From a virus (taxonomy: Duplodnaviria; Heunggongvirae; Uroviricota; Caudoviricetes), in the IMG/VR virus record IMGVR_UViG_2651869782_000006: 5,034 nt of DNA; one strand, given 5' to 3'. This document shows positions 848-5,024 of this stretch, piece by piece (the first letter of the stretch is position 1; each line of letters opens with the position of its first letter). The notes beneath the pieces are model-generated. The model was not told where the DNA came from and searched no databases. It saw only the letters and a program-made list of their open reading frames with translations. The position numbers and the translations under genes are program-made.

Positions 848-3672
848 ATGACGGCAGAGTACATCAGGGACTGGCAACAACCGCGCCACGCAGTGGGGCG
901 TGAAGGAACGGGGATCCCCGCTCCTGAATCCACGCTTTCCTCCTGGCTGGATGCCTACCGGGTAGAGAACGAGCGCCGCCAAGAAATGGCTGATGCGGCG
1001 TTCTCCGCCACGCCGCTGGGCAACCTGATTAATAAAAGCCTGGACGCACAGGAAAAACAGGACAAAACCATCACACTGGCAGGAGACGCCAGAAAACAGG
1101 CACGCGGCGCGGTGGATGAAGCCATGGCCTCGCTGCGCCTGCTGCCGTCCTATCTGCGCGATCCGCTTATTCGCCACCTCTCCTTCCTGCGCAAAAAACA
1201 GGAAGCCGATCGCCAGAAAGGCAAAAAGAGCTGGCAGGCAGAACGCTACGCGCGCGGAACCCTGCGCAAAATATTCGAACGTCTGGACCACACCGATCAG
1301 CCGCTGGCTGACACCGGGTTATCGCGCCCTTGCCGGACGCGAACGCCTGGACGATTTGCTTTACCTGCCGCAGCTCAACAAACAACAGATACAGACGCTG
1401 GCCACCATGACGGCGGCGATGTTCAGCAGCACATTCGAAAAACTCTGCGATGGCCTTGGCGCCACAGATGGCGAACTGACCATGGAGGTAACGCTGAAGG
1501 CATATCAGATGCTGGCCCGCATGGCGTTACACCTGCACACCATGCCGCCACATTACGAAGCACTGACAACAGACAAAGACCGGAGGAACGAACCGGACAC
1601 GGAACTGCTACCGGGCGCAATCCTTCGCCTGACCTGTGCGGAATGGTGGAAACGCAAACTGTGGCTGTTACGTTGCGAGTGGAGAGAAGAACAACTCCGC
1701 GCCGCCTGTCTGGTTTCCAGAAAAACATCACCCTATCTGAGCCAGGACGCGTTAAGCGAGTTTCACGCACAGCGCGAGAAAACACGCGATTTCCTGAAAA
1801 GTTTCATGCTGGAAAACGAAGACGGGTTCACGATTGATCTCGAGACAGTGTATTACGCGGGAGTAAGTAACCCGGTCCACCGTAAAGCAGAAATGATGGC
1901 CACCATGAAGGGACTGGAACTTCTGGCCGAAGCCCGTGGCGACAAAGCGGTGTTTCTGACTGTCACCTGCCCGTCAAAATACCACGCCACAACAGAGAAC
2001 GGTCATCCGAATCCCAAATGGAACGGGGCCACCATGCGCGACTCCAGCGATTACCTGGTTAACACGTTTTTTGCGGCGGTCCGCAAAAAACTGAACCGCG
2101 ACGGTCTTCGCTGGTATGGCATCCGCACGGTGGAGCCTCACCATGACGGCACCGTGCACTGGCATATGATGGTCTTTGCACATCCGGAAGAAATCGAAAC
2201 CATCGTGTCCCATCACCCGCGATATTGCCATTCAGGAAGACCGCCACGAGCTGGGCAATGACATAACTCCGCGCTTTAAGGCGGAGTACGTAGACGGCTC
2301 AAAAGGCACACCAACCAGCTACATCGCCACCTACATCGGAAAGAACCTGGACAGCCGCGCCGTGGATGGCATCGACCCGAAAACGGGCAAGCCACGCGTT
2401 GACCACGAAACCGGAAAATCAATGGCAGAGAGCGTGGAACGCGCCATCGGCTGGGCGCGCCTTCACCGGGTCCGCCAGTTCCAGTTCTTTGGCATTCCCT
2501 CTCGTCAGGTATGGCGTGAACTCCGCCGCCTTGCCAGCCAGATGGCACGCAACCCGGAAGGCCCACAACGGCTGAAGGATGATGCAATGGATGCGGTACT
2601 CGCTGCCGCTGATGCCGGGTGTTTTGCCACCTACATTGAGAAACAGGGCGGCGTACTTGTTCCACGCAAAGACTACCTGATTCGCACCGCCTACGACCTC
2701 GCAGATGAGCTGAACGATTACGGCGAACAGAGCGTACAGATTTACGGGATCTGGTCACCACTCATCGGGGAGTCTTCCCGTGTGTGCACACATCCGGATA
2801 ACTGGAAGCTGGTAAGACGTAAACCGGAAGCGGAAGACAGCGCCCGCGAAAATGGTTTTGACCTTCAGGGCGGCCCTGCCGCCCCTTGGACTCGTGGCAA
2901 TAACTGTCCCCGTGTACAGGAAACAGACAACAACGGGACAGAACAGCCGGAAGAACGGCCAGCACCGTGGCCGCAGCTCCCTGACGGCGTTGAAGTGAAC
3001 GAATGGATGCGCTCACTGAAACGGCACGAACGCCGGGCGCTGATGCGTTCGCTGCGTGACAAACAGGCAAAAAACAGCAGTGATGAAATGCAGAACTGGA
3101 CACAGAGCCGCAAACAGCAACAGCCTTTGCCTGATAACCACGAATTACTCGCTAAAGAATGGCGGGAGTCTGCTGAATCTCTCGGCCTGCATATCGGTGA
3201 ACAGCAGATGCAGCACCTGTTACGGGGCGGCAGTCTGTACGTTGACGGCAGCATCATTGCACCGCAGGGATTTGAAATTGTACGCAAACCGGATACCCGA
3301 CCGGACAGCCGAATCACGCAGCTCTGGCAACGCCTGAGCCGTAACCACGGCGTAAGCAGCACGGAGATCCGCCATAACCCAGTCGCCAGCTATCTGGAAC
3401 AACTAGGGGCATCAGACCCCGAAGCCGCCGCACGCCTGGCATCCACACTTCAGCAAGACCAGAACACCATGAAAACACCCGTTACCGTACTTTCTGACAT
3501 GCTGCGCGCCATCCGCGACGCAGAGCACGAACAGAGAATCAGTGAAACAACTGAACGCGCCCGCCGCAAAGCAGACCTGCTGCGGGGTGACCTGACCAGT
3601 GGAAACAAAAAACAGACAGAAACGGGATTCACAAATCCCGTAAATGAGCAAAAAACGCGCCGCGAAATATGA
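848..3672 (+). pseudogene. A: rolling-circle replication initiation endonuclease, phage P2 gene A family (HUH superfamily), interrupted by two apparent single-base insertions (genuine pseudogene or homopolymer sequencing error)
   Basis: Three overlapping ORF-track segments in three frames read as one protein: 848 to about 1316 (frame of ORF 848..1837), about 1317 to about 2210 (frame of ORF 1116..2261), and about 2211 to 3672 (frame of ORF 2176..3672, TGA at 3670-3672). Outside these intervals each ORF translates to Cys/Arg-rich out-of-frame-looking sequence. An HUH-type motif, VHWHMMVF, is encoded at 2154-2177. A paired-tyrosine motif, SYIATYIGKN, has Tyr codons at 2320-2322 and 2332-2334, the YxxxY arrangement of phiX174 A / P2 A-type initiators. 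The composite would be about 940 aa. Confidence 0.75.
3606..3647. repeat. direct repeat copy 1 (42 bp) containing palindrome ACGGGATT-CACA-AATCCCGT (3622-3641); lies inside the 3' end of the replication gene
   Basis: Hand alignment of 3606-3647 against 3679-3720 gives 34/42 matches. Both 8-bp palindrome arms are identical between copies while the 4-nt spacer differs completely (CACA vs TCAG). Confidence 0.6.
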
Positions 3673-3678
3673 AGCGCG

Positions 3679-3720
3679 CACAAAACAGGCAAAAACGGGA
3701 TTTCAGAATCCCGTAAACGA
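3679..3720. repeat. direct repeat copy 2 (42 bp) containing palindrome ACGGGATT-TCAG-AATCCCGT (3695-3714); lies in the intergenic region upstream of parM
   Basis: Same alignment as copy 1; the copies are offset by 73 bp. Copy 2 ends 28 bp before the parM ATG. Confidence 0.6.
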
Positions 3721-3748
3721 TTAATTAATCAACATAAGGAAAAGCGAC

Positions 3749-4708
3749 ATGAAAATTTGTATCGACGACGGCTCCACCAACATCAAGCTGGCATGGACTG
3801 AGAACGGCGAACGCCGCAACGCCATCAGCCCGAACAGCTTCAAGTCGGAATGGTCTGCGCCGTTCGGTGGCACGCAGCCCGCGAACTACATGCTTGATAG
3901 CGTGCGCTATGGTTTTGATCCGGTCAGCGATCGCTTTGTCCAGACGACCGACACGCAATACCAGTACAGCGATGTGAATGTCATTGCCATTCATCACGCG
4001 CTGGTCAAATCAGGCATCACACCACAGGAAGTGGATGTGGTTGTCACCCTGCCACTGAGCGAATATTTCGACACAAACGCACAGCCGGACATGGCCAACA
4101 TCAACCGCAAAAAAGCAAACGTCATGCGCCCGGTGGAATACCAGAACGGAAAAGCATTCACTATCCGTAACGTACGGGTTATGCCTGAATCCATTCCGGC
4201 TGGCTTTAAAGCACTGGCTGACATGAGTCCGTTTGAATCCCTGCTGATTGTGGATTTAGGCGGAACCACGCTGGATGTGGCAAAGGTTCAGGGACAACTG
4301 GCAGGTATCAGCCAGGTGTTTTGCGATCCACACGTAGGCGTTTCCCTGATGGCCGATGCCGTACTGTCGGTGATGGCCACTAACGGTATGCGCACCAGTC
4401 ACCACATCGCCAATACCATTATCGAACATCGCCATGATGAAGCCTGGCTGCGCCAGCACATCCACAATGACGCGCATTACGCCAGCCTGATGGCGGTTAT
4501 TCGTGAAAAGGAAGAAACACTGAAACAACGCGTGATCCGCGCGCTGGCGGTTTTTTCGGGTTACGGGCGGGTGATGGTTGTCGGTGGCGGGGCGGAGATT
4601 GTGGCACCCGCTATCCGCGAAGCCTGCGGAGTTAATGCGACTTTCATCGCGGACGGAGTGCCACAATTTGCTCTGGTTAATGGGCTGTACGCAATGAACA
4701 AGGAGTAA
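3749..4708 (+). CDS. parM: ParM/StbA-family actin-like plasmid segregation ATPase (type II partition)
   Basis: ATG at 3749 with AAGGA (3736-3740) at 8-nt spacing; TAA at 4706-4708. Actin-fold signatures are present: N-terminal phosphate-1 motif IDDGSTNIKLAW, ISPNSFK, YSDVNVIAIHHAL, PESIPAG, phosphate-2 motif SLLIVDLGGTTLD, and adenosine motif VVGGGAEIV. By recollection it is collinear with plasmid R1 ParM along the full length at roughly 40-50% identity (not computed). Confidence 0.9.
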   Translation: MKICIDDGSTNIKLAWTENGERRNAISPNSFKSEWSAPFGGTQPANYMLDSVRYGFDPVSDRFVQTTDTQYQYSDVNVIAIHHALVKSGITPQEVDVVVTLPLSEYFDTNAQPDMANINRKKANVMRPVEYQNGKAFTIRNVRVMPESIPAGFKALADMSPFESLLIVDLGGTTLDVAKVQGQLAGISQVFCDPHVGVSLMADAVLSVMATNGMRTSHHIANTIIEHRHDEAWLRQHIHNDAHYASLMAVIREKEETLKQRVIRALAVFSGYGRVMVVGGGAEIVAPAIREACGVNATFIADGVPQFALVNGLYAMNKE

Positions 4709-4712
4709 ACCA

Positions 4713-5024
4713 ATGACGACACCAACCAGAAGAATAAGTTTCTATCTGAAGCCAGCTGCCGTCAAGAACGAAGGAGAAGCATGCGCCTGGCTGGACAGCC
4801 TTACACCAGAAGCCCGCAAAAGCGGCCAACGCGTGGCTTTTCTGGCCGGGCTGGCACTTCTGAAGACGAATCCGGCAGAGGCTTACCGACTGGCCGCATG
4901 GGCTGATGATGAGATGTTACCTGTGACACAAATCAGCTCAAAAAAGTTTGAAGCACAGTCTGCACCAGTGGCTAAGATAACCAGCCAGATGGCTGGGAAT
5001 ATCCGGGCGTTATTTCCTGAGTAA
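4713..5024 (+). CDS. parR: ParR/StbB-like centromere-binding adaptor protein (likely ribbon-helix-helix)
   Basis: ATG at 4713 with AAGGAG (4700-4705) at 7-nt spacing, 4 nt after the parM stop; TAA at 5022-5024. At 103 aa, and sitting immediately downstream of parM, it fits the parM-parR operon layout. The N-terminus (TRRISFYLKP ... LDSLTPEARKS ... AFLAGLAL) resembles the R1 ParR N-terminal DNA-binding region as I recall it. Confidence 0.65.
   Translation: MTTPTRRISFYLKPAAVKNEGEACAWLDSLTPEARKSGQRVAFLAGLALLKTNPAEAYRLAAWADDEMLPVTQISSKKFEAQSAPVAKITSQMAGNIRALFPE

Follow-up and report, generated by a model that had tools for sequence, protein, structure and literature searches.

Two GGG-N10-CCC dyads upstream of parMR in P88-like prophages of Escherichia coli: a candidate parC-like site for ParR

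What does a duplicated palindromic element do at the boundary between a phage replication gene and a partition gene, and which protein would bind to it? This question is raised by a 5,034-nucleotide stretch of DNA from a tailed phage (IMG/VR record IMGVR_UViG_2651869782_000006, Caudoviricetes), the whole of which is called the window here. The element consists of two copies of a 42-bp direct repeat that lie between the genes gpA and parM. Copy 1 (3606-3647) is within the last 22 codons of the gpA frame, copy 2 (3679-3720) is in the gpA-parM intergenic region and ends 29 nt upstream of the parM ATG, and the 31-bp spacer between them (3648-3678) includes the gpA stop codon. Each copy has a perfect 8-bp inverted repeat with a 4-nt centre. 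Dyad 1, ACGGGATT-CACA-AATCCCGT, is at 3622-3641 (arms 3622-3629 and 3634-3641) and dyad 2, ACGGGATT-TCAG-AATCCCGT, is at 3695-3714 (arms 3695-3702 and 3707-3714). Within them is a core, GGG-N10-CCC, at 3624-3639 in dyad 1 and at 3697-3712 in dyad 2, the latter being 52 nt upstream of the parM ATG. The answer that we favour, with about even confidence and from comparisons of sequences, is that the two dyads would be a parC-like site for ParR, that is, the cis-acting site of a type II (ParM/ParR) partition cassette.

The 42-nt copies are 81% identical, are 73 bp apart from start to start, and make up the single direct-repeat family that was found in the window by a repeat search. When ACGGGATT-N4-AATCCCGT was searched with up to three mismatches there were two occurrences in the window compared to 0.01 expected from 200 shuffles, and in the 35.8-kb genome of Escherichia phage P88 the motif is present in the two homologous places only. 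The copies differ at eight positions, which include all four of the centre, none of the 16 in the arms and four of the 22 in the flanks; for random placement of these differences the probability, calculated by hand, is C(22,4)/C(42,8) = 6e-5. Thus, the duplicated element with its perfect 8-bp arms and fully differing centres, which had been described in an earlier, sequence-only reading of this DNA, was confirmed in every coordinate and is far above chance, and so was the description that the copies straddle the gpA stop (TGA, 3670-3672), with parM starting at 3749.

The evidence that carries the favoured reading comes from diverged prophages. A ParM protein search found syntenic P2-like prophages in Hafnia (61%), in Plesiomonas (62%) and in Serratia and Enterobacter (53-58%), where gpA, sometimes followed by an extra open reading frame (ORF), precedes parM-parR and the portal gene is farther downstream. 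A search for GGG-N10-CCC from 400 nt upstream of parM to 200 nt into the gene gave exactly two occurrences each in Hafnia and in Plesiomonas. Relative to the parM ATG they are at -128 and -55 in Hafnia (spacing 73 bp) and at -131 and -59 in Plesiomonas (spacing 72 bp), and those of the window, representing E. coli, are at -125 and -52 (spacing 73 bp). In a three-way alignment of these two lineages with E. coli no contiguous block was invariant except GGGA, AA.CCC, CGGG, A.CCC and ATTAAT, the last of which is at -25 to -29 from the ATG. In Hafnia and Plesiomonas the dyads have inner arms and centres that are not complementary, and their predicted hairpins are only -4 to -5 kcal/mol compared to about -10 kcal/mol (-10.2) on either strand in the window. 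Since these relatives keep the cores but cannot form the hairpin, it is the sequence at a fixed spacing that is conserved. Base identity kept at fixed spacing and position, and not a foldable structure, is the signature of a dyad-symmetric protein-binding site. Searches for intermediate lineages returned loci of the E. coli type, with a ParM identity of at least 88%, or of plasmid types, with about 50%, and nothing else besides one locus, L099, that belongs to the Serratia/Enterobacter clade, and a scan of viral contigs with a degenerate dyad plus ATTAATCAA pattern gave 120 random matches and none with a ParM gene.

The genes that precede the element differ between lineages. One E. coli lineage has a shorter gpA followed by a separate 155-aa ORF whose 3' end runs into the element, and its similarity to the window starts at about 3608, which is about where copy 1 begins. 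In Hafnia a 167-aa ORF spans the region of both dyads and has its stop inside dyad 2, and in Plesiomonas the gpA stop is 6 nt past dyad 1. Because differing upstream ORFs run into the element, it belongs to the parMR module and not to gpA, and the upstream gene, of whatever kind, simply reads into it. The distribution among phages was examined as well. The region 3560-3800 is present in 14 of the 84 phage records that match the window, all of them P88-like and all with parM, and the remaining 70 share just a 50-nt island of gpA (2866-2915) and do not have this region. The sequence-only reading had supposed that the DNA site and the C-terminal tail of gpA constrain each other, but the overlap of copy 1 with coding sequence is incidental. 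In a population sample of 83 close relatives (ParM 97-99% identical), for which the 200 nt upstream of parM were tabulated, the gpA tail encoded by copy 1 has the non-synonymous changes F>L in 35 of 82 and V>A in 6 of 82 (counts for dyad 1 are out of 82, one locus, L018, having no dyad 1), and the last residues of gpA vary, being RREI or HKT.

Immediately downstream of the element are parM (3749-4708, plus strand), which encodes a 319-aa actin-like segregation ATPase (PF06406, 1.7e-81; PF21523, 5.8e-69), and parR (4713-5024, plus strand), which encodes a 103-aa protein of the StbB family (PF10784, 1e-23), the presumed binder of the dyads. ParM is 46-52% identical to plasmid ParMs. The diversity of parM at the first, second and third codon positions in the 83 relatives is 0.006, 0.0035 and 0.045, respectively, which indicates that parM is under strong purifying selection in the prophages, and therefore the parMR system is taken as being in use. 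When ParR alone was compared to the PDB by phmmer no match was found; a profile that includes the ParR of the window matches the ParR of pB171 (PDB 2JD3) with E = 5e-16. On the strength of this match the cassette is classed as a type II, R1/pB171-like ParM-ParR pair within an integrating P2-like phage. Across E. coli alleles the N-terminal RRISFYLKP and the C-terminal NIRALFPE of ParR are invariant and the linker between them is hypervariable. The alleles in Escherichia are 42-98% identical, with almost all of the divergence in residues 55-95 and the N-terminal 50 residues fixed. By contrast, the identity of ParM exceeds 88% throughout the sampled loci of the E. coli type. A ribbon-helix-helix domain followed by a ParM-binding tail is the known design of ParR proteins (PMC5016525), and the conserved ends and variable linker seen here appear to match it. 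The N-terminal beta-strand reads TRRVSFYLKP in Hafnia, TRRISFYLNP in Plesiomonas and NRKISFYLKP in the Serratia/Enterobacter clade; ParR thus changes in step with the site, the three lineages with dyads having TRR(I/V)SFYL and the clade without them NRKISFYL. ParR is also the only DNA-binding protein conserved in the cassette.

How the element compares with known centromeres was considered next to these data. In parC of plasmid R1 a 39-bp promoter core is flanked on each side by a set of five 11-bp iterons (PMC2241845). Like this parC, the element is directly upstream of parM-parR and is bipartite, with two repeat blocks and a short spacer, and its partners are homologous, ParM being 46% identical and ParR alignable; the R1 iteron core ACCCAAAA also resembles the CCC-N-AAA right halves of the dyads. 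The iteron AAACCCAAAAAC of an R1-like plasmid, a 12-mer, is identical to the right half of dyad 1 of Hafnia (L090 3384-3395, L087 574-585). The plasmid relatives have short direct repeats grouped in two clusters upstream of parM, and the distance between repeat copies is 72 bp in an R1-like plasmid and 73 bp in a pOXA-48-like one. The differences are that in R1 the 2 x 5 iterons are direct, extend over 159 bp, enclose the promoter TTGACT...TAAACT in the 39-bp centre and have strong A-tract phasing (PMC2241845), whereas the P88-type site is made up of two inverted-repeat dyads and has neither significant phasing nor a consensus promoter, and its copy 1 is overlapped by the upstream gene. The par1 locus of pB171, whose ParR (StbB, PDB 2JD3) is the closest solved ParR by profile, also has very few sites upstream of parM, namely two 10-bp repeats (PMC9426499). 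Its sites are described as direct repeats, unlike the P88-type sites, which are palindromic and 73 bp apart. The operators of Arc/Mnt/CopG-type proteins are palindromes of about 20 bp on which two ribbon-helix-helix dimers occupy adjacent half-sites, and the dyads resemble them in being palindromes of about that length; these proteins are transcriptional repressors with no role in segregation.

Because of these plasmid parallels and the conserved ParR, a ParR-bound analogue of parC is the best explanation of the two dyads. The sequence-only reading had already named a ParR-bound centromere or operator as a candidate; the candidate stands, on the grounds of the linkage to parMR, the deep conservation of GGG-N10-CCC and the family of ParR, and not on the perfection of the arms from which it had been argued. 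The sequences themselves show the anatomy, the link to parMR, how deeply the dyad cores are conserved and the families to which ParM and ParR belong; from these we infer that ParR is the binder, that its complex with the dyads serves as the centromere and that a promoter is present. In this model dimers of ParR, or dimers of dimers, would bind each 16-20-bp dyad through the N-terminal ribbon-helix-helix, and the GGG and CCC triplets, 13 bp apart, would be the essential bases. A distance of 73 bp is about seven helical turns, which would place the two dyads on the same face of the helix so that the complexes could act together, and the resulting nucleoprotein complex would present the conserved C-terminal tails of ParR to ParM filaments. 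With ATTAAT (3724-3729) as the -10 of a putative weak promoter, the -35 position would be covered by dyad 2, and because of this ParR could also repress parMR. This putative -10 is part of ATTAATCAA (3724-3732, plus strand), a candidate weak -10 element that is invariant in E. coli, Hafnia and Plesiomonas and is located within the palindrome GATTAATTAATC (3719-3730).

Several findings weigh against a ParR-bound site and they are taken together here, beginning with the form of the site and its surroundings. As in other type II loci, there is an actin-like ParM, a downstream ParR adaptor and repeats just upstream of parM, but where such loci have arrays of direct 10-20-bp iterons there are two inverted repeats, and all characterised ParR proteins bind direct repeats (PMC9426499). 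A periodicity of A-tracts of 10-11 bp was at p of about 0.05 in the window compared to 0.001 in an R1-like control, and it was absent in Hafnia and Plesiomonas. The possibility that each 42-bp copy is made up of four degenerate 11-bp iterons was considered and was dropped for lack of significant periodicity. The sequence-only reading had spoken of a parM promoter region, but no sigma-70 consensus promoter was detected in 3300-4000, no conserved promoter hexamers were found in the spacer 3648-3678, and promoter scans of both strands, relatives included, gave nothing convincing. The AlphaFold2 model of ParR has a mean predicted local distance difference test score (pLDDT) of 57, which is too poor to confirm the fold. 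The Serratia/Enterobacter clade does not have GGG-N10-CCC; in its place is one long inverted repeat whose 19-bp arms, GGGAACGA.ATAGAAAAAT, diverge without compensation and enclose a variable apex of about 27 nt. This repeat (in L093, L095, L096, L099 and L100) extends from about -118 to -51 from the parM ATG, and its apex differs between loci and is often able to form a small hairpin of its own.

The remaining adverse findings are from the 83 close relatives, whose upstream regions fall into 58 distinct haplotypes. Both palindromes are perfect in 23 of them, one is perfect in 34 and neither in 26. The arm polymorphisms in dyad 1 are T>C at 3628 in 35 of 82 and T>C at 3641 in 6 of 82; those in dyad 2 are A>G at 3695 in 34 of 83 and C>T at 3712, which alters the outer C of the dyad 2 core, in 22 of 83. 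The mean diversity (pi) of the arms is 0.054, compared to 0.045 at the third codon positions of parM, and thus the rate at which the arms evolve within E. coli is about that of synonymous sites. The spacer between the copies has a mean diversity of 0.055 and the 4-nt centres one of 0.169. Compensatory change was not found, none of the 16 pairs being altered on both sides, and the covariation score in an 85-sequence alignment was equal to that of the shuffled control, although at such shallow depth this test is uninformative, and the deeper relatives lose the hairpin. Given the arm diversity and the lack of paired changes, nothing within E. coli marks the arms as selected, which is contrary to what had been concluded earlier from their perfection; the perfect 8-bp arms of the window are a lineage-specific elaboration and not the selected feature. 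The CGGGA/TCCCG core has a mean diversity of 0.028, and the sole invariant part among the 83 relatives is the inner GG/CC of each dyad (3625-3626 with 3638-3639, and 3698-3699 with 3710-3711). In 55 further metagenomic loci the spectrum of variants was the same as in the 83 relatives. A single fused copy was found in two of about 138 loci (L018 and L250), two independent variants in which 73 bp is deleted with differing junctions. No linkage was found between dyad haplotype and ParR allele, in a test that is left without power by the invariant beta-strand of ParR.

Some other features of this variation were also recorded. The centres (3630-3633 and 3703-3706) are hypervariable, their diversity of 0.17 being about four times the synonymous-site value, and the centre of copy 2 segregates as TCAG and TAAA in a ratio of 47:35. 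No consistent RNA strand emerges by eye, the common variants of copy 1 keeping pairing on the minus strand and those of copy 2 on the plus strand. The 12-bp sequence at 3719-3730, GATTAATTAATC, is a perfect palindrome just upstream of the parM ribosome-binding site, and it is replaced by the symmetric double variant GGTTAATTAACC in five relatives and by the single intermediate GGTTAATTAATC in five. The gpA frame of L018, with its single fused copy, has its end in the GATTAA of this palindrome.

Other explanations of the element have to be weighed against a ParR-bound site. The dyads may be operators for some other DNA-binding protein, a phage regulator or a host factor, that controls read-through from gpA into parMR or a local promoter. 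GGG-N10-CCC at a fixed spacing is a constraint of the kind that a protein imposes and does not name the protein, and a dyad of 16-20 bp is more typical of helix-turn-helix dimers than of the direct-repeat sites known for ParR (PMC9426499). However, the P88 genome has no further occurrence of the motif, in contrast to the operators of general phage regulators, the motif is always found together with parMR regardless of the upstream gene, and no DNA-binding protein of the cassette other than ParR is conserved, so that we consider a different protein unlikely. It is decidedly unlikely, in our view, that the hairpins are intrinsic terminators of the minus strand, or 3' ends of small RNAs, which stop leftward transcription into gpA. 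Terminators had been set aside in the sequence-only reading for want of a T-run, and this holds for the plus strand, where the hairpins are followed by AAATGA and AAACGA, but it overlooked the T-rich tails TTTTTGCCTGTTTTG and TTCTGTCTGTTTTTTG that follow both hairpins on the minus strand, the only strand on which a hairpin with a U-run is found. With its GC-containing 8-bp stem of about -10 kcal/mol followed by a T-run, each minus-strand hairpin resembles a Rho-independent terminator and was called terminator-like, and the A-run plus CGGGA left flank ACAGGCAAAAACGGGA is common to the Serratia/Enterobacter clade, where the long hairpin also precedes a minus-strand T-run. What speaks against it is that there is no transcription unit to end, since no minus-strand gene or promoter-like site is present on the parM side, and that between the portal gene and parR of P88 there are already two terminator-like hairpins on the minus strand, both of them stronger. 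Moreover, the common copy-2 variant GCGGGATT...AATCCTGT, present in 16 of the 83 relatives, forms a minus-strand hairpin of only -3.3 kcal/mol, in Hafnia and Plesiomonas the cores are kept but both the stable hairpin and the T-run are missing, no compensatory changes were seen, and in an Rfam scan of the window no family matched the element, the sole hit being a C4 antisense RNA at 29-116.

The element could also be a neutral by-product, a local duplication of a quasi-palindrome whose arms are alike through shared descent or template-switch correction. Within E. coli this would agree with arms as variable as synonymous sites, with the lack of covariation, with the existence of single-copy deletion variants and with the weak constraint on the gpA tail encoded by copy 1. 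It does not agree with two copies that persist in the same place and at the same spacing where ParM is about 60% identical and the non-coding sequence around them has diverged, with the invariance of the inner GG and CC of both dyads in the 83 relatives (82 for dyad 1), or with the loss of a copy in just two of about 138 loci, and it is therefore regarded as improbable. The sequence-only reading had also listed a recognition element of the replication initiator among the candidate roles. The origins of P2-family phages are inside gene A, and copy 1 is inside gpA, as would suit a recognition or origin element for the rolling-circle initiator gpA or a single-strand hairpin that serves in replication. 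That role is hardly credible in view of the 84 phage records, 70 of which have part of gpA in common with the window and do not have the element, the 14 with the element that all carry parM, and the dyads that follow an ORF other than gpA in Hafnia and in one E. coli lineage.

Every ParR characterised so far binds direct repeats (PMC9426499), so that a ParR that does bind the dyads would be the first shown to use inverted repeats and a centromere of two sites; if there is no such binding, the element is just an ordinary operator or terminator of little wider interest. What would be new here, and we give it about an even chance, is a type II partition cis-site built of two dyads instead of arrays of direct iterons in a very common E. 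coli prophage. A literature search for the dyad sequences found no printed match in the library of papers searched. With the cis site pinned down there is now a defined fragment with which to ask whether parMR of P88-like prophages partitions DNA. More tentatively, and this we find possible but doubtful, an integrating P2-like phage may run a working ParMRC machine whose centromere is two 16-20-bp dyads and whose ParR reads inverted repeats, giving it a stable episomal state or positioning its replicating genomes. P88 was flagged in a survey as a possible phage-plasmid with partition genes although it integrates (PMC7969092), and this remark was the only match in the literature searched for P88 and ParM. 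A complete P88-like genome of 34,461 bp, integrase included, is on record as a circular 'plasmid' from an isolate of E. coli (NZ_CP148288.1, our locus L102), and 22 of the 1,463 places that match 3560-3800 in the E. coli collection are on plasmid records. These occurrences on plasmid records are consistent with an episomal state.

The window as a whole aligns over its full length, at 95-97% identity, with Escherichia phage P88 and other Xuanwuvirus genomes (P2 family, Peduoviridae). Chromosomal prophages that match it are present in 1,457 of 5,426 complete E. coli genomes, and the segment 3560-3800 alone in 1,323 of 5,426 (about 24%); the carriers of P88-like prophages include strains of O157:H7, ST131 and UTI89. 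The best match to all 5,034 bases among the E. coli genomes of the collection is at most 98.1% identical. All the genes of the window are on the plus strand, and the gpA replication endonuclease (848-3672), the 3' end of which overlaps copy 1, is followed by ParM and the R1/pB171-type ParR. Compared to P88 there are two single-T insertions in gpA (at 1297 and 2213) which split it into three frames, 848-1837, 1116-2261 and 2176-3672, and this split is the result of either decay of the prophage or a sequencing error. Upstream of gpA are the genes for a 'derepression' protein (173-403) and a hypothetical protein (476-841). Just upstream of the former, at 29-116 on the plus strand, is the Rfam match to the C4 antisense RNA (RF01695, 83 bits, E = 6e-16), and together the RNA and the derepression gene recall, by analogy, the immI-like antisense-RNA/antirepressor module of P1, here inside a P2-like phage. 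Finally, the 50-nt island of gpA at 2866-2915 is shared, at about 90% identity, with P2-like phages of Klebsiella and Salmonella that are otherwise unrelated (70 records), and it is a candidate nick site of gpA or a candidate origin.

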